Assembly: GCA_964557205.1 (NCBI GenBank)
Contig: CAZKZI010000002.1
Location: forward strand, 1 to 62,611
Direction of reading: 5' to 3'
DNA from: an uncultured Lentisphaeraceae bacterium
Lineage (GTDB): Bacteria; Verrucomicrobiota; Kiritimatiellia; RFP12; UBA1067
Length of the DNA: 62,611 nt
In this document: positions 24,611 through 46,649 of the stretch, piece by piece
Layout: every line of letters begins with the position of its first letter
How positions within the stretch are numbered: position 1 is the stretch's first letter
Translations under genes and position numbers: made by a program
The notes under the pieces: generated by a model
Database searches by the model: none
What the model was told of the DNA's origin: nothing
What the model saw: the letters and a program-made list of their open reading frames with translations, nothing else

Positions 24611-24631
24611 TTCTGCCGAGCATGTTGTTGT

Positions 24632-25015: not shown

Positions 25016-25042
25016 ATTCGGCTGAAGCCGGATGGGGCAGCT

Positions 25043-27037
25043 TTGCACTTCGAGGTTCTTTCCAGAAAATTGGACTTTGAGGACGAGTACCGCTGGATGG
25101 TTCAGGCGCTGGCCGAAGAATGTCAACAGTTACTGCTGGAGTGGAACAGTCCCACCGCCTTTTCGATCCGCTCTGACGCAGACCATGACCGGCGATTGCT
25201 GCTGGAGCAGTTTCTGTTTCTCAGGCACTGCCTGCTCGGTAGCGACAAGCTCGACAGTTTTCTGGAGCAGATCAGGCGGCGACCGCATACGTTGCTCAGG
25301 CGTGAACAAATGTGGCAGCCATCAGCAATGGCGTATAGTCCTGCCTTTGTACGCGACCCGATCAGGTTCGGCCGGTCGTGGCGGGAGAACGGTGAAGGCG
25401 CATTCTTTCCAGAAGAGGTCTTGTCGGAGCGGAAATTCGAGACGCTCGACACACAGCCGAACCGGTTCATCAAGTTTGCTTTGCAGCAGTTTCAAGAGCT
25501 TTGCGATAACGTCCGATCCATGCTTAAGAAGGAGCAAGGAACCGCCTGGATGGAGGCGGGGCTGATGCAGGAGTCCTTGGACGCGTTTCTGCTGGATCCT
25601 TTCTTTGATGAAGTTGAGCCCTTGCATCGGATTCCGTTGGACAACGTGACGCTGCAGAAACGCGAGGGATACAGGGATATCCTGTTCACTTGGCTGATGT
25701 TGGAAGTGGCGGCGCAACTGGATTGGCCAGGGCGCGATGACGTATACGACGGGACAAACCGTGATGCGGCCACGCTATATGAATACTGGCTCTATTTCGT
25801 TTTGAGGAAGCAACTCTTGGAGAAGTCGGGCGATCACAGCCTAGCGATGGAGGAGTTGTCGGTCAATCGGGAGGTCGAATCCGGCGCGCTACCGTTCATA
25901 TGTCAGACCGATGCGGGCAATCTGGAGATCAACCTCAAAGAAGGATGCGCTTCTTTATCGAGGTTTATTTGGAAAGCAGATGACGGACGTTCCCTTTGTA
26001 TTCATCTATTCTATAACCGCACCTTTATCGGCCAGAAAGATCCACGAAAGCGCGGCTCTTACAGTCATTCTTTCCGGCCGGATTACACGCTAGTCATTCT
26101 GCCGGGCGAGTATGCAGCAGACCGATGGGATACGGCCGAAAATAAAGCCGAACAGGAGGGGCGGATCGCATACCTGCATTTCGACGCCAAATATCGAATC
26201 GAGAAGCTCGATGATCTGTTCGGTCTCGACAGCGATGATTTTCTGAGGGATGAAAACGTCGAAGTGAAAACACGGCAAACCTATAAGCGCGGCGATCTTT
26301 ATAAGATGCACACCTACAACGACGCGATCCGGCGGACGGCAGGCGCATACGTTTTCTATCCCGGGAATGCACAGGACAGCAACGAAGCGGCCAAGAGATT
26401 CGGCCGATTTGAAGAACTGGTCCCGGGTGTTGGGGCTTTCGCTGTGCGGCCTGGGAAGACTGGGCCGACGGGTGTTATTGCGGTGCGAAGTTTCATCAAG
26501 GACGTTCTGAAACATCATTTAAACTCATTCACCCGCGATTACCGCATCCGGTATTGGACTCACAGGACTATCTGTGAGACGCCCGCTATGCAAGCAGACA
26601 ATGATCATGGGGAACACCGACAAGCCCCAGCCGGTGACATTGCGGTGGTCGTTGCTTGGGCACGGTCTGAAGCCGTTGCGGAATTGTGGAGGGAGAAGAA
26701 GTTCTTTTATGTCCATGCGCTTAAGGCGACTCAGCGACAGCAAGATGTCCCTGAAGGGCTTTTGAGCGCAGACAAAGTTTTACCTCACTGTGACGGCAAG
26801 TGGCTGTTATGGACAGCGAAAATTGAACGCTGGGAGTTGGTGGAGAGGCGGCAACTCATCGATGCTTGGTTGGGGGGCGATGAGAGCCTGCTGGGCAGCG
26901 ATACGAGCTACTACTATGTGGCTTCGCTGAAGCAGTCCGAGAGCATTGAAGGACTCCCGATCGTGCGGACACCTAGGCGGGGGTACGACGTGGTACCGTG
27001 GTCCAAGCTTTTTGTGGCGGGGGCGGATGAAGGATGA
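25043..27037 (+). CDS. DUF2357-type McrC-like protein with a PD-(D/E)xK nuclease domain (C-terminal 664 aa)
   Basis: The ORF-track start is TTG 25043. HFEVLSRKLDFEDEYRWMV and DTQPNRFIKFAL are the McrC/DUF2357 ENR-type motif. The nuclease motif is FRPDYTLVIL ... YLHFDAKYR ... DLYKMHTYNDAI. Confidence 0.75.
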   Translation: MHFEVLSRKLDFEDEYRWMVQALAEECQQLLLEWNSPTAFSIRSDADHDRRLLLEQFLFLRHCLLGSDKLDSFLEQIRRRPHTLLRREQMWQPSAMAYSPAFVRDPIRFGRSWRENGEGAFFPEEVLSERKFETLDTQPNRFIKFALQQFQELCDNVRSMLKKEQGTAWMEAGLMQESLDAFLLDPFFDEVEPLHRIPLDNVTLQKREGYRDILFTWLMLEVAAQLDWPGRDDVYDGTNRDAATLYEYWLYFVLRKQLLEKSGDHSLAMEELSVNREVESGALPFICQTDAGNLEINLKEGCASLSRFIWKADDGRSLCIHLFYNRTFIGQKDPRKRGSYSHSFRPDYTLVILPGEYAADRWDTAENKAEQEGRIAYLHFDAKYRIEKLDDLFGLDSDDFLRDENVEVKTRQTYKRGDLYKMHTYNDAIRRTAGAYVFYPGNAQDSNEAAKRFGRFEELVPGVGAFAVRPGKTGPTGVIAVRSFIKDVLKHHLNSFTRDYRIRYWTHRTICETPAMQADNDHGEHRQAPAGDIAVVVAWARSEAVAELWREKKFFYVHALKATQRQQDVPEGLLSADKVLPHCDGKWLLWTAKIERWELVERRQLIDAWLGGDESLLGSDTSYYYVASLKQSESIEGLPIVRTPRRGYDVVPWSKLFVAGADEG

Positions 27038-27386: not shown

Positions 27387-28067
27387 TCAGGGCTCCGGTG
27401 GCGGTTTGAAGCCGTTGAGCGTTTCGATCAGCGTGTAGACGGTTGTGCAGGGGTTGGCGCGTGAAGGTGGCGTTTGGAACGCGACGACATCATTATGGAG
27501 GCGCTTAGCCCAAGCAATCGCCTGGGCCTGCTTGCCGGTTTGCGAAAGGACTTGATACATGTCCACGGCGTTCTTCGCGTAAGGCCGGTCCATCAGGTCC
27601 GTGAGTTTGTCTTGATACTCGGTGCGGGGCATGGCGGTGATGCGGTACTCGAAATGGAGCACGTACCAGAGTTCGAAAGCCTCGTTCGACCAGGCGGCCT
27701 TCATGCCCTGATTCTCGGCTTTCAAAATGGCGTTGTCGAAATTAGCGGGCGGGAAGCTGTCGCGGTCAAAGACGACCCAGACCTGGTCGAACGGATAATC
27801 ACTGTCGGCCCGCTCGTCACGCAGCGCCTGCGCTTTCTCGACCAGCCGCAAGGTGTTGTCGCCCTCGCCGCTGATTTCCACTTCAATGACATGCAGGGGC
27901 AATTCGGCTTTGATAGCCTTGAAGTAATTGGGCTCGGTCTTCTCGCCCTCGCAGACGATCAAGAGACGCTGCCGCTCAGCCAAAGCGTCGACTTGTCGTT
28001 TGAGGCTTTTTTGGCTGCGAAGGTGCCACGGCGTGTTGCGGTCGCTAATCTTGACGGGTTTCCCCAT
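27387..28067 (-). CDS. RloB-like (Toprim-related) protein
   Basis: LLIVCEGEKTEPNYFKAIK ... FDQVWVVFDRDSF ... AWSNEAFELWYVLHF is the RloB family signature. The start overlaps the upstream ATPase gene by 23 nt. Confidence 0.85.
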   Translation of the reverse strand: MGKPVKISDRNTPWHLRSQKSLKRQVDALAERQRLLIVCEGEKTEPNYFKAIKAELPLHVIEVEISGEGDNTLRLVEKAQALRDERADSDYPFDQVWVVFDRDSFPPANFDNAILKAENQGMKAAWSNEAFELWYVLHFEYRITAMPRTEYQDKLTDLMDRPYAKNAVDMYQVLSQTGKQAQAIAWAKRLHNDVVAFQTPPSRANPCTTVYTLIETLNGFKPPPEP

Positions 28068-29355
28068 GATCCGTCTCCTTCAAGAGGGTTTCGAAGTGGC
28101 CCAGATAGGGGATCGCGCCGTAGCGGCCGCGGATGTAATTGGCGGCAAGATCCGCATCATTGCGCACCTTGGAGCCGTCCGGGAGTTTGAACTCGGCCAA
28201 CGAATAGAGCGTCGTGGCGGCGAGGCGGTCCTTTTCCGTGAACCAGATCTGGTCGCGGCGCAGCTTGCCCTTTTCGAGCAGCATCGTGTCGTGCGTGACA
28301 AAGATCAACTGCGCGCCCTTGGGATTCGTCACGGTGGAGTTGAACATTCCGACGATGGCCTTGGTCAGTAGCGGGTGCAACTTGGCGTCCAACTCGTCGA
28401 TAGCCACCACGTAACCGTTGTCGAGGCAATCTAGAAGCGGGGCGGCCATGCGCAGGAACTTCTTAGTGCCTTCTGACTCTCGCTCGTTAAATGGAAAAGG
28501 TATGAGGATGTCCGGTTCACCGTCACGAAACCGTTGATGGATCGCTGAAATCTTCAGAGACGTTTGGTTGCGCAATTTGTTCTGCATTTCCGGGGTAAAG
28601 AACTTGAGATATCCTTCGTCGGCAGAAGTTGGCGCTTCATTGACGCTGAGTTCTGAGATTCCGACATCCGCGTTTCTGACAAAACGCACAAGTTGATCAT
28701 GCTTTGTCACGTCTTGGATGCAACGAGCGGTATAGGCGTCAAACATTTGATCGTTCAGTCCGTGGATCGTCCGGAAGTCGTTAAACCACTTGAGGATGTG
28801 ACCGGCAGTCTCGCCGTTGAACTGCGCGACGACCGAGAGGAAGAGGGCGTTATCGCGGGTCTTATCCTCCAGTCCGGAGCCCTCCTTGAACGTTTTGCGG
28901 ACGTCGATGCCGTCGTCCTCGCGCAGGAAGAGGGTGGTCTCTTTGGTCTTTTCCGTGCGGAGCAGCCATTCCTTGCGGACGGCCTTGCTGTCGGCCTCGA
29001 AACCATAGCGGTAACGCGCGCCGTTCTGGATAAGCGTGATCTCGAAGCGGCTCGGGGCGTTTTCGGTGGCGGTGTCCAGCAGGAAAGGCTTGACGGGTAT
29101 ATCATCCTCGACCTGAGTTTCCTTGGACGAGGAGAGTACGAAGCGCCGCATGAAGACCATGGCGGCGATCAGGTTCGACTTGCCGCTTGCGTTGGCGCCA
29201 TAGATGGCGGCGCTTTTTAGCAGGCGGGTATCGTCGGAGCCGGCCTCGAAGGTGTTATCATCGAGCTGCTCCTTGTAGGCGTTCACGGCGACCATGCTGA
29301 GCCGCACGGGGTCCTTGAACGAAAGATAGTTGCCGACTTCGAAATCGATCAACAT
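28045..29355 (-). CDS. AAA_15/AAA_21-type ABC-like ATPase (RloA/OLD-N-terminal-like)
   Basis: MLIDFEVGNYLSFKD..., Walker A IYGANASGKSNLI, the C-terminal VVAIDELDAKLHP (Walker B/D-loop) and QLIFVTHDT (H-loop). Confidence 0.85.
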   Translation of the reverse strand: MLIDFEVGNYLSFKDPVRLSMVAVNAYKEQLDDNTFEAGSDDTRLLKSAAIYGANASGKSNLIAAMVFMRRFVLSSSKETQVEDDIPVKPFLLDTATENAPSRFEITLIQNGARYRYGFEADSKAVRKEWLLRTEKTKETTLFLREDDGIDVRKTFKEGSGLEDKTRDNALFLSVVAQFNGETAGHILKWFNDFRTIHGLNDQMFDAYTARCIQDVTKHDQLVRFVRNADVGISELSVNEAPTSADEGYLKFFTPEMQNKLRNQTSLKISAIHQRFRDGEPDILIPFPFNERESEGTKKFLRMAAPLLDCLDNGYVVAIDELDAKLHPLLTKAIVGMFNSTVTNPKGAQLIFVTHDTMLLEKGKLRRDQIWFTEKDRLAATTLYSLAEFKLPDGSKVRNDADLAANYIRGRYGAIPYLGHFETLLKETDHGETRQD

Positions 29356-33245: not shown

Positions 33246-34715
33246 ATGGAAAAAGGCTTTTATTGGGGGTTGGTAAACAGACTGCATGCCGCAGTAGCGG
33301 CTGGCCTACTGGCGCTCTTATCAGGCTGCTGTTATCATGCGGTCAAGCCCTTGCCGGATGGGCTTTCGTATAGCAGCGGGTGGCTACCGGTGCCGGAAGC
33401 CCGGTTCTTGAGCGACCGCTCCGGTGTGGACGCTGTCGGGCGGCGGCTGGTGGAACAGGAGATTTTCGACGAGGTGTTCGGCATGATCGCCCGAGCCGAA
33501 AGGCTGGTGCTGGTAGACATGTTCCTGTTCAATGATTTTCTCGGCGTCGGTCCGCCGCCGCACCGCTGTCTCAGCAAAGAGCTGACCGAGACCCTGATCG
33601 CGCGCAAGCGTGCTGTGCCGGGATTGCGTGCGGTGCTGATCACCGACCCGGTGAATACAGTTTACGGCGGCATGGAGAACACTTATCTAAAACGTTTGGA
33701 GGCGGCTGGGGTCGAGGTGGTTGTCACCCGCCTGGAGGCGCTGCGCGACAGCAACACCGCCTGGTCGAGCGTATGGAGATTGTTCGTCCAACCTTTTGGC
33801 AACAGCCCGGGCGGCCGGGTGGCAAACCCTTTCGGTCCGGGCCGGGTCACTGTGCGCAGTTGGCTGGCGCTGCTCAACTTCAAGGCCAACCATCGTAAAG
33901 TGGTGGTGGCAGACGCGGGCGGCAGGCTGTACGCGCTGGTTACTTCCGCCAACCCGCATGACGGCAGCAGCGCCCACTCGAACGTCGGGATTGTGTTCGA
34001 GGGCGTGGCGGCGCAGGCAGTGCTGGAGACGGAGCAGGCGGTGCTGGAATTCAGCGCCGCGCCGACAGCGCCTTTATGCAACGAGTTCGTGGATGCCGCG
34101 GCGCACGCCGGGGGTCTGCCTGACGCGGGCGGAGTGCGGTTGCAGGTGCTGACCGAAGCGGCGATCGCAGATGCGGCCGAGGCCATGATAGACAGCTTGG
34201 ATGCAGGTGATCGGCTGGACCTGGTCATGTTTTATCTGGCTGACCGCGGTGTTGTCTGTGCGCTCAAGGCTGCGGCAGGATGCGGCGTGTCCTTGCGCGT
34301 GGCACTTGATCCGAACAAGGACGCTTTCGGGCGGCAGAAAAGCGGGATGCCGAACCGGCAGGTGGCGCGGGAACTGGTGGCGGCGGGTGTGCCGGTGCGC
34401 TGGGCGGTGACGAGCGGCGAGCAGATGCATTCCAAGCTGCTGTTGGCGCGAAGGGCTGACGGCTCGGCTGATCTGCTTTTGGGCTCGGCAAACTTCACGC
34501 GCAGGAATCTTCGGGACTACAATCTGGAGACCAACGTGCGTTTGTCCGGCGGAGCTGAAACGCCCGCGCTGTGCGCTGCGGCGGATTACGCCGAGCTGGT
34601 CTGGAACAACACAGGGCGCGTTTACACGACAGCTTACGAGAAGTATCGCGACGATTCGCGCTGGCGCGTCTGGCGTTACCGACTGCAGGAGGCCACTGGT
34701 CTCTGCACCTGGTAA
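33246..34715 (+). CDS. phospholipase D-family (two HKD motifs) lipoprotein
   Basis: Lipobox LLALLSGC. HKD-1 is NHRKVVVAD. HKD-2 is MHSKLLLARR...LLGSANFTRRN. Confidence 0.85.
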   Translation: MEKGFYWGLVNRLHAAVAAGLLALLSGCCYHAVKPLPDGLSYSSGWLPVPEARFLSDRSGVDAVGRRLVEQEIFDEVFGMIARAERLVLVDMFLFNDFLGVGPPPHRCLSKELTETLIARKRAVPGLRAVLITDPVNTVYGGMENTYLKRLEAAGVEVVVTRLEALRDSNTAWSSVWRLFVQPFGNSPGGRVANPFGPGRVTVRSWLALLNFKANHRKVVVADAGGRLYALVTSANPHDGSSAHSNVGIVFEGVAAQAVLETEQAVLEFSAAPTAPLCNEFVDAAAHAGGLPDAGGVRLQVLTEAAIADAAEAMIDSLDAGDRLDLVMFYLADRGVVCALKAAAGCGVSLRVALDPNKDAFGRQKSGMPNRQVARELVAAGVPVRWAVTSGEQMHSKLLLARRADGSADLLLGSANFTRRNLRDYNLETNVRLSGGAETPALCAAADYAELVWNNTGRVYTTAYEKYRDDSRWRVWRYRLQEATGLCTW

Positions 34716-36137: not shown

Positions 36138-38204
36138 TCACCGATCGAGACTGGAGAGAAACTCGGAAATGGGCGTTATGCCTGTGATCAACAGGAAGTC
36201 CCGGGCGCGGGTGGCAGCCACATAGAGCATCTGACGCTCCATCGCCATGATGTCATTCGCATCAGCTTCGCGCATGGCGCAATCCAGCCGCGTTTGGAGC
36301 GGCACCCACATGGCATCGCACGCCATTACCGCAACTGCTTTGAACTCAAGTCCTTCCGCATAGGGCATGGTCGCCATCGCGATTTTTCCCTCTTCATCCG
36401 GGTTTCCTTGGTCTAACAGAACATAGTCTTGCTTTACCAAGGTCACAACCTCTTCGGCACGCGGTAGCAATTCATGGGTGCGCACGAAAATGCAGCACTC
36501 TTGCGGCTTGACCCCTGCCTCAAAAACCTGTTCCAGCCATTGGGCAACCCCGAACTGCTCTTCTTCCTTTGTCATGTACTGTCGGATCGAGGGCGATAAC
36601 CCCGAGAATATTGAGATGGCCTGGCGCCGATCTTCAATGACTCCATCCGCATCCTGAAATTGCTTTGAGACAAAACGATCAGCCAGCATCCGTATCTGAT
36701 GCGAGGTACGGTAGTTGACCTTAAGAATGTGCGAGCGGCCGACAATGTTAATCCCAGCCGATTGCCACGAGACCAGTGGTTGCCGAATCCGCTGTCCTAA
36801 ATCACCTACAAAGAAGAGCGATTGCGGCGTTTTGCGCATGGCGTTAAGCAACACAAGGTGCTCGTGCCGTAAATCCTGGCATTCGTCAGTAATAATGTAA
36901 TCGAATGGATTCTGCAACCTTCCGTCAGCAAGCATCATAGTCACGGTACGAACTTGACGAAAAGGGGGCGTCAGTCCGCGTGCTGCCAGAAGCTTAGTCG
37001 CCCGCTCAACAATTCGCCAGATCTCATGCCGCTGAACCCGACTCAACCGCACAAGTCGTCCTTGTCGCGCTAGCGCGGCATAGGACTCCGGGTTGTCAAC
37101 TCCGGCTACTTCGATCACCTGACTCCACTCGTCAAAGAGGAAGTCTTCCGAATAGTTGTTTAAATCCAAATCGATCCGGGCTTCCTTAAGCGTCTTGCGT
37201 ACCTCCCGCTCATCTGCTGCTGGCGCGGTTGTCGCTTTTCCGTCCAGAAGCAGTTCCGGCAGTGTATCAATTGCCACAACAGTGATGTGTTCAAAAACAG
37301 TTGAATCATCTCCGACTAATCGCTGCACCAGCGAGGCAAGAGATGCGGCCAGTGCCCGGGAGATCGTTGTCAACAGGATTCGTGCTGTGGGCGCTTGACG
37401 TGCCAGGTGCACCGCCCGGTGTAAAGCCACCACCGTCTTGCCAGTTCCCGGACCGCCGCAGATACGCGCATCGCCGTCATCCTCTGCTTCGACCCACTTA
37501 CGCTGTTCGGGGTGAAGGAAGATGCGCCAATCATCCCAGGGCATGGACAAGGCGGCTTGCAGTGCATTCGGCGAATCAATAGCGTAAAAACGGCGGGCTG
37601 CATCGGGTGCGAGAAACGGATTGGTTGTCGCCACTGGCCACCGCGTCACTCGCGGTGTACCGCCGCTCGCCAGTGTCAGCAGGGCTTCGACAGCTTCCTC
37701 CGGCAAATATTCGATAAAGTCCAACAATTCTTTTTCCGAGCGAACACCACGCACATCGTTCACCCACTGATCCGGAATTCCCAGCCAGGCAAATTCGGTT
37801 CGCGGTAGATTGGCGAACAGGGGACGGCGCTGATCGCGTACGGGTGTGGGTCTGGCACGCATTTCTGACTTCACCAGTTCACGCAGAACAACCATCTGCA
37901 TTGCGCCGGTCGTGGGATTGGCAGCAAACTTCCGTTTCTGCGCCCAGGCATAAGCCTGATCGTGGTGGTCGGCATAGCAGAAGAGGGTGCCGTGCTCTGA
38001 GTCATGCAGAATGAGCCGGATGTCCCGCGTACTTCGCAACGACCAGAAGCCAGGATCGCGGCAGCGGTCGAGCCGGTGTTTGCGCAACCCCGGATGGGCG
38101 GGGTTCGCCTGATACATCTCCGCCGCCTCGACCGCGCTCTCTCGCTCAGCGGCCTGCAGTCGCGTCAGACTCTCAGTAAAACTCTTGGCAATGAACAATC
38201 CCAT
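36138..38204 (-). CDS. UvrD/Rep-type SF1 helicase with an N-terminal RelE/ParE-like domain (operon gene 7)
   Basis: Walker A GGPGTGKTVVALHRA, motif II FDYIITDECQDL, motif III FFVGDLGQRI, NYRTSHQI, and motif VI LYVAATRARDFLLITG. The N-terminal ~95 aa (NPAHPGLRKHRLDRCRDPGFWSLRSTRDIRLILHDSEHGTLFCYADHHDQAY) follow the RelE/ParE pattern. Confidence 0.85.
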   Translation of the reverse strand: MGLFIAKSFTESLTRLQAAERESAVEAAEMYQANPAHPGLRKHRLDRCRDPGFWSLRSTRDIRLILHDSEHGTLFCYADHHDQAYAWAQKRKFAANPTTGAMQMVVLRELVKSEMRARPTPVRDQRRPLFANLPRTEFAWLGIPDQWVNDVRGVRSEKELLDFIEYLPEEAVEALLTLASGGTPRVTRWPVATTNPFLAPDAARRFYAIDSPNALQAALSMPWDDWRIFLHPEQRKWVEAEDDGDARICGGPGTGKTVVALHRAVHLARQAPTARILLTTISRALAASLASLVQRLVGDDSTVFEHITVVAIDTLPELLLDGKATTAPAADEREVRKTLKEARIDLDLNNYSEDFLFDEWSQVIEVAGVDNPESYAALARQGRLVRLSRVQRHEIWRIVERATKLLAARGLTPPFRQVRTVTMMLADGRLQNPFDYIITDECQDLRHEHLVLLNAMRKTPQSLFFVGDLGQRIRQPLVSWQSAGINIVGRSHILKVNYRTSHQIRMLADRFVSKQFQDADGVIEDRRQAISIFSGLSPSIRQYMTKEEEQFGVAQWLEQVFEAGVKPQECCIFVRTHELLPRAEEVVTLVKQDYVLLDQGNPDEEGKIAMATMPYAEGLEFKAVAVMACDAMWVPLQTRLDCAMREADANDIMAMERQMLYVAATRARDFLLITGITPISEFLSSLDR

Positions 38205-38210: not shown

Positions 38211-40703
38211 CTACTGCATGGTTCCGATCGCTGAACCCAGTTCCCGATCTTCAATTGTGTCCGTTTTGCGGATAAACCGCGCCACATAATCGGAAAAGCA
38301 GCCTCCTACCTGATTCATGTTAGCAACCATGGTTGGAGGAAAACATACATTAGCAAGCTGTCCGTCAAAGTTAATTAGCCGCAACAATCTTTCCCGCAAG
38401 GGATCATCTTTATTGGCAAGAAAGTCCGGATGCGTTTCACGTACGCTAAGAGCAAAGAGGATAGAAAACAACACGTCCTTCCGTGGCACATCAGCAAAGC
38501 CATTAAGATTGAAGTTTGGCAAATAATTTATCAAAGCGTTCAAATAGCATTGCACAAGTTCAAGATTTATTGTGATTCCAGTATGCCAGCAGAGCATCCT
38601 AAAGAGTGACCAACACAACATTTTCGCTTGCTGTGGATCACTAAAATGTGCGTTTTCGCAATAGTTTACGAGTAATTGAAGATCATCAGGATGATCACCA
38701 AGAACAAAACCAGGGCCATGTGCCTCGGAGTAAGACGGGAATGGTGCGTTAATTCGCAGAAGTGAGCGAATATGATTCTTGTAAGCTTGCGATGCATGTC
38801 CGTGACAGTAGTTGTTCTGCTTACTCCAATTATTACGAAGCTGCATACCAGCAGGTATGTTTCCGTTTTGCCAAAGATGATTCGAGAGAATCTCTGCCAA
38901 CTCGGATATTTCCCTGTCTGGTAACACACGCGTGCCAAACAGACCGCGGGTAGGTTGACTTGGGTGAGCACGCCACCCCCAGCGATCAAGAGCGCTAAAA
39001 GGAAAAATTGGTGCGCAGTGAACCGGGGGAGAATCAACACGATATTGCTGAACAGCATTTTGCAAAGCAGCAATTTGATCTTCTTCCCCATTACAGTATC
39101 TGACCAACAAACTGAGCATTTCCAGATTTGCTGGATCATCATAGATGCGTCCAATTACAGGTTGAGCTTCAAGATAGCCTTTGTGCTCAGGCTCGGGCTT
39201 CGTCTCTCTGCCTTGTGCGTGATCGTCTGGATCAAGGGCATAGGTAAGTATGACGGAGTTTTTTCCCTGTTTTCCGTCCGAAACAAAAGGTCGCGAATCA
39301 TCAGCCGCAGTGACAGTAAACCTGGCGTTTCCCCTTGCTGCTTCTACCGTTGCATCAAGACGCAGAGGCAGTTCTTGTGGCAATGGCGTAAAAAGGTCCA
39401 CCTGAAGCCGACGTGCGTAGTCGTAGTCTGGATCATCACAAGGAAGCCGCCGAACGAGCATGGAAAAGCGATCTCGATGACGGTTGATGCAGAAGGCATT
39501 GTGTATGGCGTCATCATTTAATGTCCACGGGATTCCTGGTTCAACCTCCTGATTGGGAGCAACAAGCTGCCTGCCGCCTTGGCTGGTCCAGATTCTGTAC
39601 TCCGGCAACGTATCGTAGTAGGTCGGTTGATTTTCCGCCCGCCGCTCGGCGAAAAGCCGCGATCCTTCAGCTACCGCTGCAAGCGGTAACACCCGGATAT
39701 TCCGTCCAGGCCATACGCCCTCAAGCATCGCTTTCAACCCGTCCGCATCAAGATGCGTGAGCCATCCGTAAACAAGAATGGTGTCGCCTTGCGCAAGATT
39801 AAAATCCTGATGCGTAAGGACGTTCTGCAAGCCATGCCACGTGTGCGGTAATGCGTCAGGCTTTGTTACATGGACCTTTTGCCAACGTATTCCTGCACAG
39901 ACCCAGATATCAAATGCGCGCGCTTCGGATTCCAACTGCTCCTGCACCTCGGGCGCGGTCTGGCAACATCTTAACTGGTCGCGCTCAGGGATATTGGAAA
40001 ACAACTCACTCCAGGCGCCATTCAGAGCCGTGTAATTAAGGTTTCTCCGACGCTCAATGTCTGTCGCGCAGGTGCGAACTGGCGCAATCCAGGCGTTGTC
40101 GCGCTGATGGCGTCGCCAGGTTAGTCGCGTAAACTCCAGCCCTGCCGAGTCGAGGTCCAGTACCCAGACCGCGCCGGTGCCCTTTGTATTGGCAAAGACT
40201 TCTTCCCCATCGCCAGCGGTTAGCCAATACAGCATGGCGGCCACGGGCCGCCAAAGCAACGATACATCGGAATGGATGCCGCTCAAGGCGCGCAGCAACG
40301 CATCCTGCGCGTCTTCGTTCAACCGGTTGGGGATTACAAAGGCGAGTTTTCCCTGCTCGTTTCTTAATGTAGGCAAATGTGCTTTAAGAGCATCAGCTAC
40401 CAATGATGCGCTTTGCCAGACATTTTTCCTCTGCGTCAAATCGCGCCAGATTGCCTCAATCGAAAGCAGGTTGGCTGTGAAAACAGTAGCGGCGTTATTT
40501 CCCTGTACGATATTGAACTCTCTGTTACATACCTGTGGACGAAAGTTTTTGGGACTGCCCCACGTTATGCGCTCGTCATGATCCTTTGCACCAGCGGCAT
40601 CGGCATAGGGTGGGCAACCGAGGAGAACGTGTCGTGTATTGACAGCTTCTTGTTCTATCTGCCACCGCAGGGCTCGCCCAGAGAGATCAATGCCGACACT
40701 CAT
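38211..40703 (-). CDS. large protein with an N-terminal degenerate Hsp70/actin-fold (ASKHA) ATPase domain (operon gene 6)
   Basis: Collinear matches to DnaK NBD motifs are visible. VGIDLSG matches [28 protein letters not shown] matches [33 protein letters not shown] matches [28 protein letters not shown] matches [26 protein letters not shown] matches [26 protein letters not shown] matches PDEAVAIGAAVQG. The C-terminal ~480 aa are unassigned. Confidence 0.6.
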   Translation of the reverse strand: [830 protein letters not shown]

Positions 40704-42373
40704 GTCATCACCTCCTGAAGCATTTTATGGACTTTGTCCTTGAAGAATCCATTGCTGCCACGCAGCATGTTTTTATCAGGCGGCAACTCCCATAGAACAG
40801 CACGCCCTTTGCGATCTTCCACTCTTGTTCTTTCCGCAGCGCGCACAAGTAACAACATGGGAATCGTAACCGTCGAGCGATTCGTTTCTGGCGAATGCCT
40901 CCATGCGATGCCAGCTTCTTCAACCCCCTTCAAGCATTCGGTGCGTAACGCCTTTGTTTTCATTTCATCCTGCCATCGACCATCGCCGATCAGTGTCCAG
41001 ACTGGAACCGCACGCACTTTTGGCCAGTCGGTAGAAACTGCAATCCAGTAAAGATCGGCATTCAGCCGATCCAGCGACAGGCCGCCCAGGCTGGACACAC
41101 GGCTAACGTCTTCACGGTTGAAAAGATAAAGCGAGATGTGGTTGCCGTCGTTTTCAAAGACAAGCGGACCATCGAAGGGTTCGGCTTTGAACCAGCAACC
41201 AAATTGTGGCTCTTTGAGGATGCGAATTGGTTTCATCGAGGCCTGAAATGCCGGAGGCCTCTCTTGGAATTTCAGGGTCCGCATGACTTCTATCATGCTT
41301 GCACGTACATAGTCGGTCCAGGCACGGCGTTTCCAGCGCCACGTCTGGTCACAAATGTCCTCCTGACGCAGCAACTTCTGATAAGCATCCCAGACCTTCA
41401 TGTACCGGACGTTCTGCTGAAGGGCGTAATTGGGTCTGCGGCAGGGAACTGCCAGCGGCGTCACACTGGTCAAAGTTGGTGATGACAAAAACTGTTCACA
41501 TCGGCGTGCAAAGGCGTCCACCCGACGTACACGTCGGCTGCAAACCGTTTCATCATTATTTCGCAGCAGCTCCCCGGTGCATTTTTTGCAGCGGGCACAC
41601 TCTTCTGCGACATACGCCATTGCTGCTGTTCGAGCGCGTCTACAGAAATCATGTACTACCCGATTTTCCAGGGTATTGGCTGTTTCTTCTCGAATAACCG
41701 CCAAAAGCTGCTGCCGATCTCCGGCTTTAATGACAGAGGTATGCCCTGGACGACGGGCGTAGTCGATAAGTGCGGTGAGGTCCATCTCCTGAAGGCGATC
41801 CAGCCTGACCTGGGCATGTTTACGCTGCAGTAAACGTCTCGGTCTTTCGATGATCTCCTGAAGTGGGCCGGGTAAATCTTCAGCTAGATTACAGATTAAT
41901 GCGCGCGAGGCAAAGTCCTCATCCTGAGATGAAAAAAAACTTTCAATCGCCTCTGTTAATAGCTGCTCAAAAAATAAGTCATACAGTTTCTTACGCTTTT
42001 TATAGAGATCATCGGCAAGTTCCTGCAGGTTATTAGTTAACATGCTATGGAACTTGCCAGGCCACTCCTCATAACTTGTTGACTGGGCACCTTTGTATGG
42101 CAGAATGGTAGTTGTCTCCTGCATTGGTAAACGCAGCGTCAAATCCTGTGGACCATCTGCGCGAAATGACGGGCCGGGAAGTTCGAACCAGAAGCTGCCA
42201 TCTGATAAGCGTGTCGGAGTCAGTCCAACTGCCAGATGTGCCACCTCTTCTTCAGATGCATCATAAATCCAGATGCCTGCGCCGTTGTCCGGTCTAACCC
42301 CTTTGTCAGGCGTAACACCTCTTGCCGGAGAGAGTATTACCTGCCAGGGGTATTCTGTGAATGCCCATGGCAT
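40700..42373 (-). CDS. McrC/DUF2357-like protein, nuclease motif not evident (operon gene 5)
   Basis: IIERPRRLLQRKHAQVRL and EETANTLENRVVHDFCRRA parallel QIRRRPHTLLRRE and LDTQPNRFIKFALQQF in 25043..27037. The position of PDY...DAKY reads ADLYW...IGDGRW. The start overlaps gene 6 by ATGA, and the gene lies 3 nt after gene 4. Confidence 0.5.
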   Translation of the reverse strand: MPWAFTEYPWQVILSPARGVTPDKGVRPDNGAGIWIYDASEEEVAHLAVGLTPTRLSDGSFWFELPGPSFRADGPQDLTLRLPMQETTTILPYKGAQSTSYEEWPGKFHSMLTNNLQELADDLYKKRKKLYDLFFEQLLTEAIESFFSSQDEDFASRALICNLAEDLPGPLQEIIERPRRLLQRKHAQVRLDRLQEMDLTALIDYARRPGHTSVIKAGDRQQLLAVIREETANTLENRVVHDFCRRARTAAMAYVAEECARCKKCTGELLRNNDETVCSRRVRRVDAFARRCEQFLSSPTLTSVTPLAVPCRRPNYALQQNVRYMKVWDAYQKLLRQEDICDQTWRWKRRAWTDYVRASMIEVMRTLKFQERPPAFQASMKPIRILKEPQFGCWFKAEPFDGPLVFENDGNHISLYLFNREDVSRVSSLGGLSLDRLNADLYWIAVSTDWPKVRAVPVWTLIGDGRWQDEMKTKALRTECLKGVEEAGIAWRHSPETNRSTVTIPMLLLVRAAERTRVEDRKGRAVLWELPPDKNMLRGSNGFFKDKVHKMLQEVMT

Positions 42374-42376
42374 AAA

Positions 42377-44050
42377 TTAATTGTCTTCCCCGTATGCCCA
42401 ATCCAACCCCTGCCAGTGGAAGAAACCGGAGCGGTTTTTCTGTCTGTTTACAGCGTTATCAAAAGCAGTATTCAGGGTGTCATCGCCAATTAGTTGGACC
42501 GTTTCTCCTACCAGCTCCAGTGTCTGAGCATGTTGTGTAAGGTCCAGTCCACGCAGTTTGGGCATGATGCGCATGCCAATCTGATCGGCCAGCGGACGTT
42601 TAAAGAAACCTAGTGTATCACTCTCGTCAATTCCCGCAGCCTTGTATGGATAGTTTGCCAGATAGCTCAGCATGGCCTGGTAGGATCTGTGCGCAAATGG
42701 ACGTCCCAGGTTTGCTAATTCGTTATTGAGTCTTTTGAGTTGCTGCTCTGCTATATGCCAACGACCATTTTCCTGTGTGTCAATTGCAGTAACGTCTTGC
42801 TTCCAATTTTCCCAGGCTGTGCGTTGCAGCATCTTTTGTGTGCCATTCTGTTTATCGGCTGTCATAGGTTTCAAGTTGTTGGGCCGCCCGAAATAGAGCA
42901 CATTTGCCCGATCAAGAACCTTGTCTGAGAGACTTTGGGTAGTTTCGTCCTCGTTCATTGTGCCGACAAAAAGCGTATTGTAATTTGCGAACAGTTGGAT
43001 TGGTTTTTCCCTGAATTCAACTTCTTGGTTGTTTTCCCCCTCCTTTTCAAAACCGTTGGCACCTGCGAATATCTCCATTGCAACTCTGCGCCGATGTTCG
43101 GTATCGTCTAGCCTGCCCCCGCGACGCAACTCCAGCTTGCTCAGGAACTCACTGAAGTAGTATTCAATACGTGCCAGGTTCATCTCATCCAGCATTGCCA
43201 TCAGCATGTATTCACTGAGGTCAGGGTCAGGATGTAACCCCTCCTGCGGGTGATGTCCCTGAAACTGAAACAGCGCTTTGGCAAGCGGTGTCGGTTCATA
43301 GCGGTTGGTGACATAGTTAAAGAATCCGAGAAGATCCTTGGGGCTGTCCCAACGCGGCTCAACCGCCAACGTAACCAGATGTATGCCCATGGCTTTGGCA
43401 TAGAGATCCGGCAGGGCGCTTTTTCCTGTTCCGCTCACGCCCGCCATAACCGTCAGGCTGGATATATCGGAGGTCTTAAGTGAGGTGTGGAAGGCATAGA
43501 GCAGACGCTCTGGCAGATCATATTCACGAATATTACGAACATAGTTCTTCATGCCATCCAATGCCTGGGTCTCAGATTTAAATTCCTGATCGGCAGATGG
43601 AGTTGTAAATACCGGATTTTTGACAATCCCCTCAAATGCCGCCTGTCGCAGAACAACCGGCCTCTCTTTCCGTGCCTTTGCAATGGCGGCAAGATCATCC
43701 ATCATCTGTTGGTTGGTCTGACATATTGAATGTTGTAACTCCCTTGTACTCTTGAGCGTTTCGTCCAGGGCCTTCAGTGCCTTAGCCTTTGATTCGTATT
43801 CCTGTGCTTTGGACCCCAGATTCTCAATAGCCTCGTTGATCTTTTTGAGCTTGGCTTCGTTCGGGCCAATTTCGTTTTCAAGGTCGTTCTTTTTTGCTTT
43901 CAGTTTGCTTATTTCAGGAATCAACTGCCCCACCCGTTCCTGTGCTTGTTCGATTTGATTTTTCAACGTATCAAGCGATGTGCGGGCTTCATCTCGATCC
44001 TTGCGAAGTCTTTCCAATTCATCCGCGAGCAAGGCATGTTCTGACTCCAT
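42377..44050 (-). CDS. coiled-coil + McrB-family AAA+ NTPase (operon gene 4)
   Basis: The N-terminal ~110 aa have heptad-rich coiled-coil character. Walker A is MAGVSGTGKSALPDLY. Walker B region is MLDEMNLARIEYYFSEFLSKLE. FVGTMNEDETTQSLSDKVLDRANVLYF is present. It is clearly paralogous to the AAA+ module of 22025..24610. Confidence 0.8.
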   Translation of the reverse strand: MESEHALLADELERLRKDRDEARTSLDTLKNQIEQAQERVGQLIPEISKLKAKKNDLENEIGPNEAKLKKINEAIENLGSKAQEYESKAKALKALDETLKSTRELQHSICQTNQQMMDDLAAIAKARKERPVVLRQAAFEGIVKNPVFTTPSADQEFKSETQALDGMKNYVRNIREYDLPERLLYAFHTSLKTSDISSLTVMAGVSGTGKSALPDLYAKAMGIHLVTLAVEPRWDSPKDLLGFFNYVTNRYEPTPLAKALFQFQGHHPQEGLHPDPDLSEYMLMAMLDEMNLARIEYYFSEFLSKLELRRGGRLDDTEHRRRVAMEIFAGANGFEKEGENNQEVEFREKPIQLFANYNTLFVGTMNEDETTQSLSDKVLDRANVLYFGRPNNLKPMTADKQNGTQKMLQRTAWENWKQDVTAIDTQENGRWHIAEQQLKRLNNELANLGRPFAHRSYQAMLSYLANYPYKAAGIDESDTLGFFKRPLADQIGMRIMPKLRGLDLTQHAQTLELVGETVQLIGDDTLNTAFDNAVNRQKNRSGFFHWQGLDWAYGEDN

Positions 44051-44055: not shown

Positions 44056-44475
44056 CTATTTCAGTTTTTCGGCTTGTGCTATCAATTCCTGGATTTTATC
44101 ATTTAGATTTTGAAGCTCCCTTTGCTTGGTATTGATCTCGGCCACCAGATTGGCAAGTATTTTTTCCAATGCCTCCCGTTCCCCATCTAATCTTGGCTTC
44201 TCATATTCAAGCCAATCCTCGGCCTCTTTTTTTCTCCTTAAAATCTCTGTAACCTTTGTATATTCGTCGTTCAAATTTTCAAGCTGTTTGCTCAACAACG
44301 TAGCTTTTTCAGCATTTTCAATTTGATTTTTTAAGGCAGTCAACTCTTTGTCAGCGTTACTGCGCAATAGCGCAACTTGTTCTTCGAGATCGCGTTTTTC
44401 GCGGGCTTTGCTGATATAGATGACGATTGCCAGAACAGCAGATGCCAGATAGGCGATAATTAGATGATTTTCCAT
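44056..44475 (-). CDS. small membrane-anchored coiled-coil protein (operon gene 3)
   Basis: An N-terminal hydrophobic helix (LIIAYLASAVLAIVIYI) is followed by KAREKR and ~110 aa of E/K/L/Q-rich coiled-coil sequence. It shares LKNQIE(N/Q)A with the gene 4 N-terminus. Confidence 0.65.
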   Translation of the reverse strand: MENHLIIAYLASAVLAIVIYISKAREKRDLEEQVALLRSNADKELTALKNQIENAEKATLLSKQLENLNDEYTKVTEILRRKKEAEDWLEYEKPRLDGEREALEKILANLVAEINTKQRELQNLNDKIQELIAQAEKLK

Positions 44476-44499: not shown

Positions 44500-45768
44500 T
44501 TATGGTTGCGGCTGGAGGTCAGCATCCGCGTTCCCAGTCGCACCTGCCGGAGCCTTCGCATTAGTAGCGCGAATGAATCGCTCAAGTTCAGCAAGATCCT
44601 TTTTGAGCTGTTCCAGCGTCTTGCGCACAATCAATTCATCGCGCCTCGCCTCGTCCAGGCGTTTGTGAGCTTCGGCTGCGCCGATCCGCGCCTCTGCCTC
44701 GGCTTCACGTGCTTTCATTTCTCCTTCTTTGGCAGCCTTGAGCCGCGCCTCCGCCTCGGCGACCTGTGTTTGCACCTTTTTTAATGCGGATTGCAGCTCA
44801 ATGATCTCAGCCGTTGCCTTATCGATTTGATCTTTCAGATCGCGAAGTTTTTCATTTGCCTGCTCAACTTGTGCCGTGTATTTGGACGCCTCAGTGCGCC
44901 TGGCATCAGTCTGTTCGCGTGCCGATTTCAGATTTGCCTGTTCCAAGGCCAGCTCCTCCTTGATCTCCGACAGCAGCTTGTTGGTGGCAGTAAGTTGAGC
45001 TTCCACTGCTGTTTTGGCTTGCAGAGCGACCGCCTGTTCCTGTTTCAGATCGTTCAGCCTCTTTTGTTCTTTTTTGATCTCCGCAAGAGTCGTATTCAGG
45101 CTGGAGAGAGCATTTTTCAATTCGGCGTCCTTCTCGTCGATTTCCGCACCCAGACGTTTTTTATCGTCGCCCAGGGTGACGATATCCTTGTTCAATTGGT
45201 CACGGCGTTTCTCGGCATCAAGTGCTTCCTGCGTCAATCGCGGCACGCGTATTTCAAGCCCCTGCAATGCTACAGCCACTGTGTTGGTATGCGCCTGCAG
45301 GTTTGCCGACTCCTGTTTTAGAAACTCTGTTTCTTCACTAACTTTTCCATTCTCGATTCGCAGTAGATGATTCGTCCGCGACAGAGTTTGGCAAATACTT
45401 TCAGCCGCCATACGATCCGCTTCAGCATTTTTACGCAATTCATTCTCTTTGTTATGGGCTGCTATAGCACTTTGCAGTTTGGTGTTAGCTTCTCTAACGC
45501 GATCAACCAGGTTGGTTAATTCAATTTCGGTTTCCACCGTCTCCTGAACCTTCCGGCTAGTTTTTTTATTGAGCTTGTCAATTTCTTCGTTGAGAGAGAC
45601 AACCTCCTTTTTTTTATCACGTATGCGAGCCTTGATATTAAAAAGTTCAACTTGCGGCAGTAATCCGACGATAACGACACTGATAAAAATAATCAAGACG
45701 CACAGTTCAATGATGCCCTGCCAACGTTTTTTATCCGGCTTGCGCACCTGTTTTTCAGTCTGTTCCAT
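44500..45768 (-). CDS. membrane-anchored long coiled-coil protein (operon gene 2)
   Basis: The ORF-track start TTG 45777 overlaps gene 1. ATG 45768 lies 9 nt after GAGGAG and 1 nt after the gene 1 stop. One TM helix (GIIELCVLIIFISVVIVGLL) is followed by ~380 aa of coiled-coil-type sequence. Confidence 0.65.
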   Translation of the reverse strand: MEQTEKQVRKPDKKRWQGIIELCVLIIFISVVIVGLLPQVELFNIKARIRDKKKEVVSLNEEIDKLNKKTSRKVQETVETEIELTNLVDRVREANTKLQSAIAAHNKENELRKNAEADRMAAESICQTLSRTNHLLRIENGKVSEETEFLKQESANLQAHTNTVAVALQGLEIRVPRLTQEALDAEKRRDQLNKDIVTLGDDKKRLGAEIDEKDAELKNALSSLNTTLAEIKKEQKRLNDLKQEQAVALQAKTAVEAQLTATNKLLSEIKEELALEQANLKSAREQTDARRTEASKYTAQVEQANEKLRDLKDQIDKATAEIIELQSALKKVQTQVAEAEARLKAAKEGEMKAREAEAEARIGAAEAHKRLDEARRDELIVRKTLEQLKKDLAELERFIRATNAKAPAGATGNADADLQPQP

Positions 45769-45769
45769 G

Positions 45770-46396
45770 TTAATCAACTCCTCTCATTTGATTCCAAAGT
45801 GTCTTTACCTGTTTGGCACATTCATCCATGTCTTGCATCAACTCTGACACCCAAAACCGTTTAACCGACCATCCAGCGGCTACGAGTTTTGCGTCCCGTA
45901 TAACATCTTGTACTTTGCGACGTCCTCTCCTGTCGCAATGGGTGGAGCGTCCGTCCACCTCCACGTCCAGACGTTGACATCCGTCTGACGATACGAGAGC
46001 GATGTCAAGAAAGTACCCCTCGGCAGGATACTGTTGGAAGATGTTAAGTCCCATCTTCCAGAGCTTGTCGGCAAATGCCGGTTCCCAGACTGGACCGATA
46101 AAGGCGGGATTACCCACTAGCGTTGGGCCGCTAGATGATGAACAAGATGGCGTGTTGACCGATTTTGAAAGTGTTTTATCAGAAGCAGAAAACTGCTTGA
46201 GACACCAGAGTGTGCCGTGATTTATTGACACAGCATTTTCATCGGACAGGTCGGCCATGGCCATGGCAACCTGGCTCAGGCGGGTGGCAAAACCGATACG
46301 CATACGCAGCACATAAAATCCCATGCCGACCGGCGAACCGGCCAGGTTTTCCTTAATCGCTTGTTTCAGTGTTTCATCTCGCAACGCAGATGGCAT
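45770..46396 (-). CDS. DUF559 / Vsr-like restriction-endonuclease-fold protein (operon gene 1)
   Basis: The C-terminal half FADKLWKMGLNIFQQYPAEGYFLDIALVSSDGCQRLDVEVDGRSTHCDRRGRRKVQDVIRDAKLVAAGWSVKRFW follows the DUF559 pattern (E..f...L...g....Q..v..Y.lDfa....l.iEvDG..H.....D..Rd..L...Gw.v.Rf). The N-terminal ~110 aa are unassigned. Confidence 0.7.
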   Translation of the reverse strand: MPSALRDETLKQAIKENLAGSPVGMGFYVLRMRIGFATRLSQVAMAMADLSDENAVSINHGTLWCLKQFSASDKTLSKSVNTPSCSSSSGPTLVGNPAFIGPVWEPAFADKLWKMGLNIFQQYPAEGYFLDIALVSSDGCQRLDVEVDGRSTHCDRRGRRKVQDVIRDAKLVAAGWSVKRFWVSELMQDMDECAKQVKTLWNQMRGVD

Positions 46397-46649
46397 GTTT
46401 TTGAAAACCTTAAAAACAGACGTAAATATATCCTGTCACATTAATAAAGATATACCATTCACATCATTATTCGAAACTATAACTGGGTTGCGTACTGATG
46501 GCAAGTCTCTTTGAGAGGAAGATGGCAGACGGGTTGTGATTGATTTTTGGCACCGCTGGAAGTAGTATATATACGGTTTATGTACGCGAATTAGTTTCTC
46601 ATTTGCCTTTCGAGTTATGTAGGACAAGTCAGGATTCAGCGGGGGAGTT
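46397..46649. promoter_or_regulatory. AT-rich divergent intergenic region (likely promoters of the seven-gene operon and of 46650..48803)
   Basis: A 253-nt gap between divergent starts, markedly AT-rich. I could not pin convincing -35/-10 hexamers. Confidence 0.35.

Follow-up and report, generated by a model that had tools for sequence, protein, structure and literature searches.

The 830-aa protein encoded on the minus strand at positions 38211-40703, as a single open reading frame (ORF), of a 62,611-nucleotide stretch of DNA from an uncultured Lentisphaeraceae bacterium (contig CAZKZI010000002.1; this whole stretch is hereafter called the window) is very likely the CnuD subunit of a CoCoNuT system derived from Type III-B. 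CoCoNuT systems are McrBC-derived, coiled-coil, anti-phage systems, and CnuD was described among them computationally (Bell, Sahakyan, Makarova, Wolf & Koonin, eLife 2024; PMC11090510). In both Type III-B and Type III-C, CnuD comprises an Hsp70-like nucleotide-binding domain (NBD) and substrate-binding domain (SBD) together with HEAT-like repeats, carries degenerate Walker A-like motifs, 'usually' contains coiled coils, and is predicted to bind ATP yet barely hydrolyse it, and to bind RNA (PMC11090510). In Type III-A, the Hsp70-like NBD/SBD, along with HEAT-like repeats, is joined in one protein to the McrC homologue's DUF2357 domain, and Hsp70-McrB fusions stand at the base of the NxD McrB clade (PMC11090510). 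A Type III-B system consists of CnuH, CnuA (a coiled coil only), CnuB, CnuC (with an inactivated nuclease) and CnuD, in which CnuH is a UPF1-like superfamily 1 (SF1) helicase with a winged helix-turn-helix, an OB fold and a C-terminally fused Vsr-like nuclease (PMC11090510).

The initial annotation of this gene had treated the protein as unexplained, a view that no longer holds: its architecture and gene context have already been named CnuD in Type III-B/III-C (PMC11090510). The identification is correct but largely known, and opens no new category. CnuD as a kind is known by computation alone, and a literature search found no experimental study of any CnuD or CoCoNuT. The operon in which it lies has a somewhat unusual form, which is derived from Type III-B and is without that type's signature helicase.

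Membership in the CnuD family was judged via the gene context of distant homologues, not by direct comparison with the published III-B/III-C sequences. A profile search recovers the homologue P0108 (E ~6e-21), and a profile of distant relatives then recovers P0175, from Desulfonatronovibrio magnus, and P0179. Each of these three is encoded in a five-gene CnuH-CnuA-CnuB-CnuC-CnuD operon, which opens with an AAA_11/AAA_12 helicase bearing MTES_1575/DUF559 at its C-terminus and continues with a coiled-coil protein, a CnuB of 669-843 aa, a DUF2357 protein and the CnuD homologue. The canonical Type III-B-type loci of P0175, P0108 and P0179 are referred to below as L015-L017, L015 being the D. magnus locus. 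Direct comparison of the window proteins with those of L015 yields a weak pairwise match for CnuD (BLASTP 7e-9) and 30% identity for CnuC (4e-35), and the Vsr-like protein of the window is 38% identical (6e-18) to the C-terminus (residues 1073-1170) of the 1173-aa L015 CnuH. For CnuB, with GTMNEDETTQSLSDKVLDRANVL identical in both proteins, it is the 34% identity (3e-82) to a canonical III-B-type CnuB that suggests placement in the Type III-B branch.

The gene order around CnuD agrees with this assignment. CnuD is the sixth gene of a tight minus-strand operon with intergenic gaps of -8 to +24 nt, which encodes, in order, the Vsr-like nuclease, CnuA, CnuB (an NxD GTPase, here divided into two ORFs), CnuC, CnuD and a UvrD-like helicase. 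The Vsr-like PD-(D/E)xK nuclease is a standalone protein of 208 aa (45770..46396) with its domain at residues ~105-200 (Pfam MTES_1575 1.1e-11, DUF559 1.1e-7). The CnuA-like coiled-coil protein of 425 aa (44500..45777) gives only weak coiled-coil/SMC-type matches, is without other recognisable domain, and occupies the same position as CnuA in L015-L017. The larger CnuB ORF (557 aa; 42377..44050) encodes a coiled coil together with an AAA+ GTPase that is McrB-like and belongs to the NxD clade (AAA_5; PADLOC PDC-M26A 7e-39), and CnuB has an N-terminal coiled coil, a Walker A motif GVSGTGKS, a Walker B motif LDEMN and the NxD signature GTMNEDE. CnuC (557 aa; 40700..42373) is a McrC homologue with DUF2357 (3.4e-9), in which no PDDEXK family was matched in Pfam by the whole protein or its last 200 residues. 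The McrBC-like operon context proposed in the initial annotation, with McrB-like and McrC-like genes upstream, is thus borne out.

The likeness to Type III-B CnuD therefore covers both the protein and its partners. Like the CnuD of Type III-B and Type III-C systems, the window protein is encoded by a separate gene directly after CnuC, has an NBD/SBD followed by HEAT-like repeats, and has degenerate phosphate-binding motifs; its partners, as in Type III-B, are a coiled-coil NxD McrB GTPase, a DUF2357 McrC without active nuclease, a separate coiled-coil CnuA and a Vsr-like nuclease. It differs from canonical CnuDs in length (830 aa compared with 864-953 aa, ~120 residues shorter) and in that no long coiled coil is evident, and no long paired helices are visible, in its structural model. 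With the Type III-A CnuCD fusion and the Hsp70-McrB fusions it shares the same Hsp70-like NBD/SBD unit joined to McrBC machinery, and because this unit is physically joined to that machinery in the fusions, we argue that CnuD probably works in a complex with CnuC and CnuB. In contrast to Type III-A, the window CnuD is made as its own polypeptide, linked to CnuC only by the 4-nt overlap of their genes, and the HEPN RNases, cold-shock domains (CSDs) and TerY-P modules of Type III-A systems are absent from the window operon. The ATGA overlap with the upstream DUF2357/McrC-like gene noted in the initial annotation, in which the CnuD start codon shares letters with that gene's stop codon, is real (GTGATGACATGAGT, 40700-40703), and a 4-nt CnuC/CnuD overlap recurs in five independent relatives, as judged by gene coordinates. 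The stoichiometric co-production of the two proteins, which had been read from this overlap, may follow from it.

The resemblance to Hsp70 had been proposed from six short motifs collinear with those of DnaK. These are located at residues 3-9, 122-136, 151-160, 179-191, 309-315 and 341-352, in the order claimed. Pfam, NCBIfam and PADLOC give no relevant match for the 830-aa protein or its 13 closest relatives, and Pfam HSP70 (PF00012) matches none of the 24 members tested, namely the protein, its 13 closest relatives and 10 distant relatives, at thresholds of E<=10 or 0.1 (E<=10 for the 13 closest). A 14-sequence profile searched against PDB sequences finds no Hsp70, the lone match being a spurious one to a Cache domain (E 0.73). 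When the same profile is aligned by hhalign with Escherichia coli DnaK alone, residues 120-203 pair with DnaK 138-214 at a non-significant E of 0.38, and the motifs paired are the same as those in the initial annotation.

An AlphaFold2 (AF2) model, built on the 14-sequence alignment with no templates, gives a stronger result. The model has a mean predicted local distance difference test score (pLDDT) of 79.6 and a predicted template modelling score (pTM) of 0.76; most of residues 1-510 lie above 80, and values in the NBD are mostly 80-96 except in residues 42-76. Foldseek searches of this model against the PDB, of the kind that the initial annotation had suggested, return an ASKHA (acetate and sugar kinase/Hsp70/actin) fold of the Hsp70 type. 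The top 50 matches are all Hsp70 or Hsp110 proteins, the best being DnaK (4b9q_A, E 4.5e-11), followed by BiP, Ssb, Sse1 and mortalin, and alignments to full-length Hsp70s span 570-705 columns, far beyond the NBD alone. Among predicted viral structures (BFVD), the top 20 matches are Hsp70 homologues, and the first actin-like match appears at E 2e-2.

Profile comparison leads to the same fold. In an exhaustive search with HMMER, 573 representative clusters are recovered at E<=1e-3, of which 305 are at E<=1e-10, with lengths mostly of 780-1010 aa, and a deep family profile was made from 127 full-length members. With hhalign, this profile aligns residues 2-466 with residues 4-476 of DnaK alone (E 1.3e-3), and residues 1-470 with positions 1-494 of a DnaK/HscA/HscC profile (E 4.5e-5, probability 69%, score 48.7). 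As controls, 20 shuffled DnaK sequences score no higher than 19.0 and reversed DnaK scores 16.0. Significance is reached only with the 127-sequence profile and the three-member Hsp70 profile, and identity to canonical Hsp70s is 11-16%. The profile alignment also reproduces the motif pairings of the initial annotation.

It could be argued that the motif collinearity arose by chance, or that the protein belongs to another ASKHA branch such as actin/MreB/ParM or the sugar kinases, a view favoured by the fact that no library hidden Markov model or single-sequence method picks up Hsp70. We consider this next to impossible, because the leading matches among both the PDB and the viral structures are all of the Hsp70 family, ahead of any actin-like protein, and because the profile alignment runs through the Hsp70-specific linker and the β-sandwich part of the SBD (SBD-β) at a score far above the shuffles. 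An Hsp70-type NBD beyond chance, as had been proposed, is therefore supported by the model, its Foldseek matches and the profile alignment, and these predictions and profile comparisons confirm that the protein is an Hsp70 specifically and not a generic ASKHA protein.

The domain map of the initial annotation requires correction. That reading had assigned the remaining ~480 aa after the NBD no resemblance to an Hsp70 SBD, whereas residues ~359-505 form a predicted linker and SBD-β, so that only residues 524-830 are of non-Hsp70 type. The NBD, with degenerate catalytic motifs, occupies residues 1-358 (39630..40703), as judged from the AF2 model, Foldseek, hhalign and conservation counts. Residues 359-505 (39189..39629) comprise an interdomain linker and an SBD-β-like β-sandwich, for which the same four kinds of evidence are available. 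The linker P360-T-Y-Y-D364-T-L-P367, whose family form is PTYxDxLP, lies opposite DnaK LLDVTPL and is kept in at least 113 of the 127 relatives. Ten β-strands are modelled over residues 363-504, with Foldseek matches to the SBD-β of Hsp70s, and the profile alignment extends to DnaK residue 494. G458 is invariant in 127/127 relatives, inside the consensus PAxGxA, and falls opposite DnaK PAPRG when DnaK alone is the target.

A connector at residues 506-523 (39135..39188) follows, defined by alignment of the 14 closest relatives, in which H507, G509, E512, Q514, V516, G518, R519, I520 and D522 are invariant. This segment is often deleted in the wider family, and pLDDT is low at residues 516-522. 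Residues 524-830 (38214..39134) are modelled as an all-helical armadillo/HEAT-like (ARM/HEAT-like) solenoid in the place of the Hsp70 lid. A separate AF2 model of residues 515-830 has a pLDDT of 81.0 and a pTM of 0.83, and designed armadillo repeats and importin-α are the best matches to it in Foldseek, with statistics that are weak but consistent in direction (E 0.06-0.3, probability up to 0.96). As predicted by these models and alignments, the architecture is an Hsp70 NBD, linker and SBD-β, and then an ARM/HEAT-like solenoid instead of the helical lid.

The Foldseek matches of lower root-mean-square deviation (rmsd; 8-11 Å) and higher TM score are ATP-state or docked structures, including 4b9q_C (rmsd 8.4), 4jn4, BiP-ATP and Sse1, whereas ADP-state or undocked structures match with an rmsd of 15-24 Å. 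In the model, SBD-β is therefore docked against the NBD in the manner of Hsp110 or of Hsp70 in its ATP state; this docking is a property of the prediction and not a measurement. The likeness to DnaK, BiP and Hsp110/Sse1 therefore includes NBD, linker and SBD-β, in a modelled arrangement nearest to that of ATP-bound or docked DnaK, BiP and Sse1. Canonical Hsp70s differ from the window protein in that the latter has Arg for the catalytic Glu, lost phosphate loops, no SBD-α lid, no EEVD tail and a defence-operon context.

The C-terminal tail of CnuD (residues 815-830, window 38214-38261) is acidic, of the form DT(I/V/L)(E/A/K)DRELG, and invariant in the close clade. It is not conserved in the wider family. 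This tail was considered as an EEVD-like docking motif, an idea that was left unsupported given that the tail is clade-specific only. A Sel1/TPR repeat protein flanks the Vsr-to-CnuD cassette in two relatives (the P0008 contig and L002), which recalls the pairing of Hsp70 tails with TPR proteins.

To establish the state of the nucleotide site, DnaK positions were mapped onto CnuD by profile alignment, and conservation was counted in the 127 relatives and in the 14 closest. The initial annotation had suggested such a check for the equivalents of D8, E171, D194 and D201. DnaK D8 corresponds to D6, which is invariant in the close clade; across the family this position is Asp in 51/127 and Ser in 33. 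The N170-E171-P172 segment of DnaK is replaced by W151-R152-P153, with Trp in 126/127, Arg in 123/127 and Pro in 115/127, and the longer motif W151-R-P-x-A155 is nearly invariant, as is G347. DnaK D194 corresponds to D183, again invariant in the close clade, and in the wider family is Asp in 53/127, Tyr in 39 and His in 31. DnaK D201 is matched by E190 (Glu in 118/127) and DnaK T199 by G188. The glycine-rich loops are altered in the manner described in the initial annotation (GGGT to DSAG, GG to YG). The GTTNS loop of DnaK, which reads LSGRA here, and the GGGT loop are both variable, and G341-G342-Q343 becomes Y312-G313-W314, in which G313 is kept in 126/127. CnuD is nevertheless under purifying selection, with proportions of non-synonymous and synonymous difference (pN and pS) of 0.26 versus a saturated 0.79 when compared with its 60%-identical orthologue in the comparison locus L004.

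These findings suggest that ATP hydrolysis is unlikely as a function of the family, because the catalytic Glu is replaced by Arg family-wide, the two metal-binding Asp residues are dispensable, and the Gly loops are gone. The proposal of an Hsp70-fold module with a degenerate nucleotide site is supported by the near-universal replacement of N170 and E171 and by the loss of the loops. The same two replacements, together with the minority of relatives that keep Asp at the D8 and D194 positions, make an adaptor or sensor more plausible than a foldase, again as had been suggested.

We also considered whether CnuD could be a genuine Hsp70 chaperone, driven by ATP, whose task is to fold or assemble the operon's other proteins. 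The full NBD-linker-SBD-β topology would fit such a role, as would the invariance of D6, D183 and E190 in the closest clade. However, Arg and Trp stand in place of E171 and N170 in nearly all relatives, neither the GTTNS nor the GGGT loop survives, and over half of the family has a non-acidic residue at each of the positions equivalent to D8 and D194. In addition, the protein is without a helical lid, none of the 24 members tested matches Pfam HSP70, and Pfam and NCBIfam scans found no J-domain or GrpE gene in the operon. We therefore regard an ATP-driven chaperone as highly improbable.

CnuD most likely serves the CnuBC GTPase as a non-hydrolytic subunit for recognition or as a non-hydrolytic adaptor. 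As a whole, this explanation, in which CnuD is an adaptor within a III-B-derived CoCoNuT, is the best available to us, and we consider it reasonably probable; the adaptor/sensor mechanism in the particular wording that follows is held with slightly better than even confidence. CnuD would be not an ATP-driven foldase but a non-hydrolytic (or extremely slow) clamp, docked in a manner resembling Hsp110 or ATP-state Hsp70. It would bind CnuC, probably through the solenoid, a contact suggested by the fusion of CnuD to CnuC in Type III-A, which is without the nuclease domain. CnuB here is without McrB's DNA-reading domain and CnuC is without its own nuclease, and CnuD may provide the CnuB GTPase ring with its arm for target recognition or its adaptor. 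Ligand capture by SBD-β and the solenoid would be relayed via CnuC to GTP hydrolysis by CnuB, which would license the standalone Vsr-like enzyme, the operon's only predicted active nuclease, with possible assistance from the UvrD-like helicase in this clade.

Several observations weigh against this explanation. All 14 sequences of the closest clade keep D6, D183 and E190, and therefore metal or nucleotide binding, or slow hydrolysis, is possible for this particular protein. DnaK K70 lies opposite a gap, in the low-confidence residues 42-76, so that no equivalent was mapped; the invariant W48 and R55 sit in this same segment, and we claim no equivalence to K70 for either. The operon is without the UPF1-like CnuH, having no AAA_11/AAA_12 helicase, and so is missing the defining helicase of Type III-B. 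CnuB is divided by a frameshift in the window, so this copy may be non-functional. All three CnuD domains carry a net charge that is roughly neutral to negative, which gives no support to generic RNA binding, and the operon's only nuclease and helicase come from families best known from DNA transactions. Finally, the mechanism includes three elements that we infer, namely the contact of CnuC with CnuD, the route of signalling and the ligand.

One candidate ligand is RNA or the ribosome, in line with the proposal of the CoCoNuT authors; another, after the example of classical Hsp70 binding, is a polypeptide that is unfolded or comes from a phage. According to the first of these readings, CnuD binds ATP or ADP without turnover, and its NBD/SBD binds viral or aberrant RNA or the ribosome, thereby steering the system to RNA (PMC11090510). 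The published case was made from the degenerate Walker A-like motifs and the reported RNA binding by Hsp70/DnaK (PMC11090510). In our data, Arg and Trp make up 14% and 9% of the 98 invariant positions, compared with 7.6% and 2.8% overall, and the top Foldseek matches include the ribosome-associated Hsp70s Ssb and those of the RAC complex. On the other side, no CnuD domain is basic, the net charges being -4, -6 and -5 here and around zero in relatives; the operon is without HEPN or other dedicated RNase, its nuclease being Vsr-like and its helicase UvrD-like; and Pfam and NCBIfam scans detected no CSD, YTH or SmpB-like domain in the operon proteins. Compared with Types II and III-A, this operon makes a weaker case for exclusive RNA targeting, because the nuclease and helicase are of DNA type and no RNase or RNA-binding domain is present in the operon. 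We judge RNA targeting to be rather unlikely in this case.

The retained peptide-binding domain and the armadillo-like replacement of the lid equally allow a polypeptide ligand. By analogy, SBD-β and the solenoid may capture an unfolded or phage-encoded protein and thereby trigger the GTPase and nuclease; chaperone-based sensing has reportedly been described for the CmdTAC system. Consistent with such sensing, the protein keeps the peptide-binding domain of Hsp70 and its linker, both under strong conservation, the replacement of the lid most resembles the peptide-binding repeats of armadillo proteins and importin-α, and the Sel1/TPR repeat protein mentioned above flanks the cassette in two relatives. 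The solenoid matches that suggest this likeness are weak, however (E >= 0.06), and polypeptide sensing is in our estimate also an unlikely alternative, to about the same degree. The adaptor role that we prefer for CnuD is in agreement with the published proposal in so far as a degenerate Hsp70 module acts as a sensor or adaptor (PMC11090510).

The operon differs from Type III-B at both of its ends. In the place of CnuH, directly upstream of CnuA, lies the standalone 208-aa Vsr-like protein. Standalone homologues occupy the same place in L004 and L005 (60% CnuD identity), in the P0008 contig (43%), and in L002, L009 and L010 (~30%), and the same Vsr-to-CnuD cassette is found in relatives of the window operon. 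The possibility that the 208-aa protein is a decayed remnant of CnuH was rejected, given that standalone homologues of ~170-230 aa hold this position in several diverged relatives. L008, from a Kiritimatiellae metagenome-assembled genome (MAG; 34% CnuD identity), encodes a CnuH-like helicase ORF at 2-1783 (594 aa, cut by the contig end) and a separate Vsr ORF at ~1806-2162 in another frame. This locus looks like a possible intermediate between the fused CnuH-Vsr and the helicase-less operon.

At the other end, the last gene of the operon encodes a UvrD-like SF1A helicase of 688 aa (36138..38204; Pfam UvrD-helicase 8.5e-14, UvrD_C 1.7e-12). An orthologue of 65% identity lies at the same position in L004 and L005, and such a helicase is found there only in the closest relatives: it is absent from that position in P0008, P0013 and L015-L017, and unrelated genes fill this place in other relatives. 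The N-terminus of the helicase (residues 1-225; 37530-38204) has no Pfam, NCBIfam or PDB sequence match. Residues ~40-95 appeared RelE/ParE-like by eye (compare the RNase-toxin-like domain of some CnuH proteins), which Pfam, NCBIfam and the PDB did not support. The close family is rare, with 16 clusters in a 5.8-billion-protein index and five loci in 185,579 species genomes, mostly from rumen Kiritimatiellae MAGs.

CnuA and CnuB in the window, and in all five comparison loci (L002, L004, L015, L016 and L017), open with a 19-residue, strongly hydrophobic segment (Kyte-Doolittle mean 2.2-3.5). In the window these segments are CnuA residues 22-40 (45658-45714; mean 3.14 over 19 aa) and CnuB residues 4-22 (44410-44466), both hydrophobic helices. 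Membrane anchoring of CnuA and CnuB is therefore predicted, and the complex probably operates at the inner membrane. Membrane helices for Type III-B are not mentioned in the main text of PMC11090510.

CnuB is encoded in the window by two ORFs. The 139-aa ORF (44056..44475), with a predicted membrane helix and coiled coil, corresponds to residues 1-124 of the 703-aa L004 CnuB (36% identity, 7e-13), and the 557-aa ORF corresponds to residues 137-703. The two are divided at an A5 homopolymer (44065..44069, minus strand): the addition of one A to this run rejoins them into a single 699-aa ORF reading ...AQAEKTEIARMESE..., matching ...ASEIAEMESE... in L004. The split could be a sequencing or assembly error, a real inactivation, or a slippage-prone tract.

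Divergence from L004 is mosaic. Window positions 40967-43717 match L004 6990-9740 at 88.6% nucleotide identity, compared with ~66% in the flanking genes. In the GTPase core of CnuB the synonymous difference is mostly 0.04-0.15, with a single 80-codon block at 0.34, and CnuC has 0.09 over its first 80 codons. In contrast, values of 0.6-0.9 are found in the genes for the Vsr-like protein, CnuA, CnuD and the helicase, and comparably high ones in the coiled coil of CnuB and the C-terminal part of CnuC. Because low synonymous difference is confined to the CnuB core and the start of CnuC, these data suggest a recent exchange by recombination of the motor core alone between otherwise old lineages.

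Taken jointly, these features might describe an uncatalogued offshoot of Type III-B with a swapped helicase, an McrBC-type machine tethered to the membrane and steered by a nucleotide-independent pseudo-chaperone, a combined claim that we put forward tentatively and regard as somewhat doubtful. The UPF1-like CnuH would first have split from the Vsr nuclease (compare L008) and then been lost, and a UvrD-like SF1A helicase would have been recruited downstream. The CnuA/CnuB scaffold would be tethered to the membrane by its N-terminal helices, and the near-universal Trp-Arg-Pro of CnuD, in place of Asn-Glu-Pro, would fill or rewire the former ATP site to produce a nucleotide-independent clamp.

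The operon has a G+C content of ~47-55%, compared with 60-65% in the flanks of the window. Upstream of its first gene, the best σ70-like promoter match is TTGCCA-17-TATAGT (46476..46504, minus strand; 10/12 positions), which is a candidate only, and a promoter and terminator scan found promoter-like sites in the region to be no commoner than in shuffles. An Rfam scan over the whole window identified no RNA family.

A second McrBC pair, of the canonical E. coli type, is encoded on the plus strand of the window at 22025-27037. It consists of an MrcB_N-domain protein at 22025-24610 (861 aa, 7e-49) and a 664-aa McrC at 25043-27037 with DUF2357 (1e-33) and PDDEXK_7 (1.6e-20). The two systems are alike in having an AAA+ GTPase and a DUF2357 partner in tandem. 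However, the canonical McrB has an N-terminal DNA-reading domain (MrcB_N) and an NxxD motif, and its McrC has an active PD-(D/E)xK nuclease, whereas in the CoCoNuT pair a coiled coil and an NxD motif are present, a nuclease motif is missing, and additional subunits occur.

The stretch of the window at ~16-46 kb looks like a defence island. Its G+C content is lower, at ~0.47-0.57 with one block of 0.63 at 32-34 kb, than that of the flanks (0.60-0.65). Other genes in this stretch encode an ORF6N protein (18067-18447), a HEPN protein (19355-19744), a protein with a weak SecB-like match (20279-20743), a pair formed by RloB (27387-28067) and an AAA_21 ATPase (28045-29355), and a PLD-family protein (33246-34715). 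Neither a tRNA nor an integrase nor an Rfam family was observed in this ~16-46 kb stretch.

The main value of these findings lies in the tie to the CoCoNuT literature and in the corrected domain map. A specialist who knows PMC11090510 would find the assignment unsurprising, and it is still an unusual use of the Hsp70 fold. To the published picture the window adds a compact, CnuH-less operon with only five conserved core genes, which could ease reconstitution, along with testable predictions at the level of residues (Arg at the catalytic Glu position and dispensable metal-binding Asp residues) and hints of membrane anchoring and of evolution by module exchange. CnuD-type proteins represent one of the few cases in which an immune machine has apparently taken over the Hsp70 scaffold as a component other than a chaperone.

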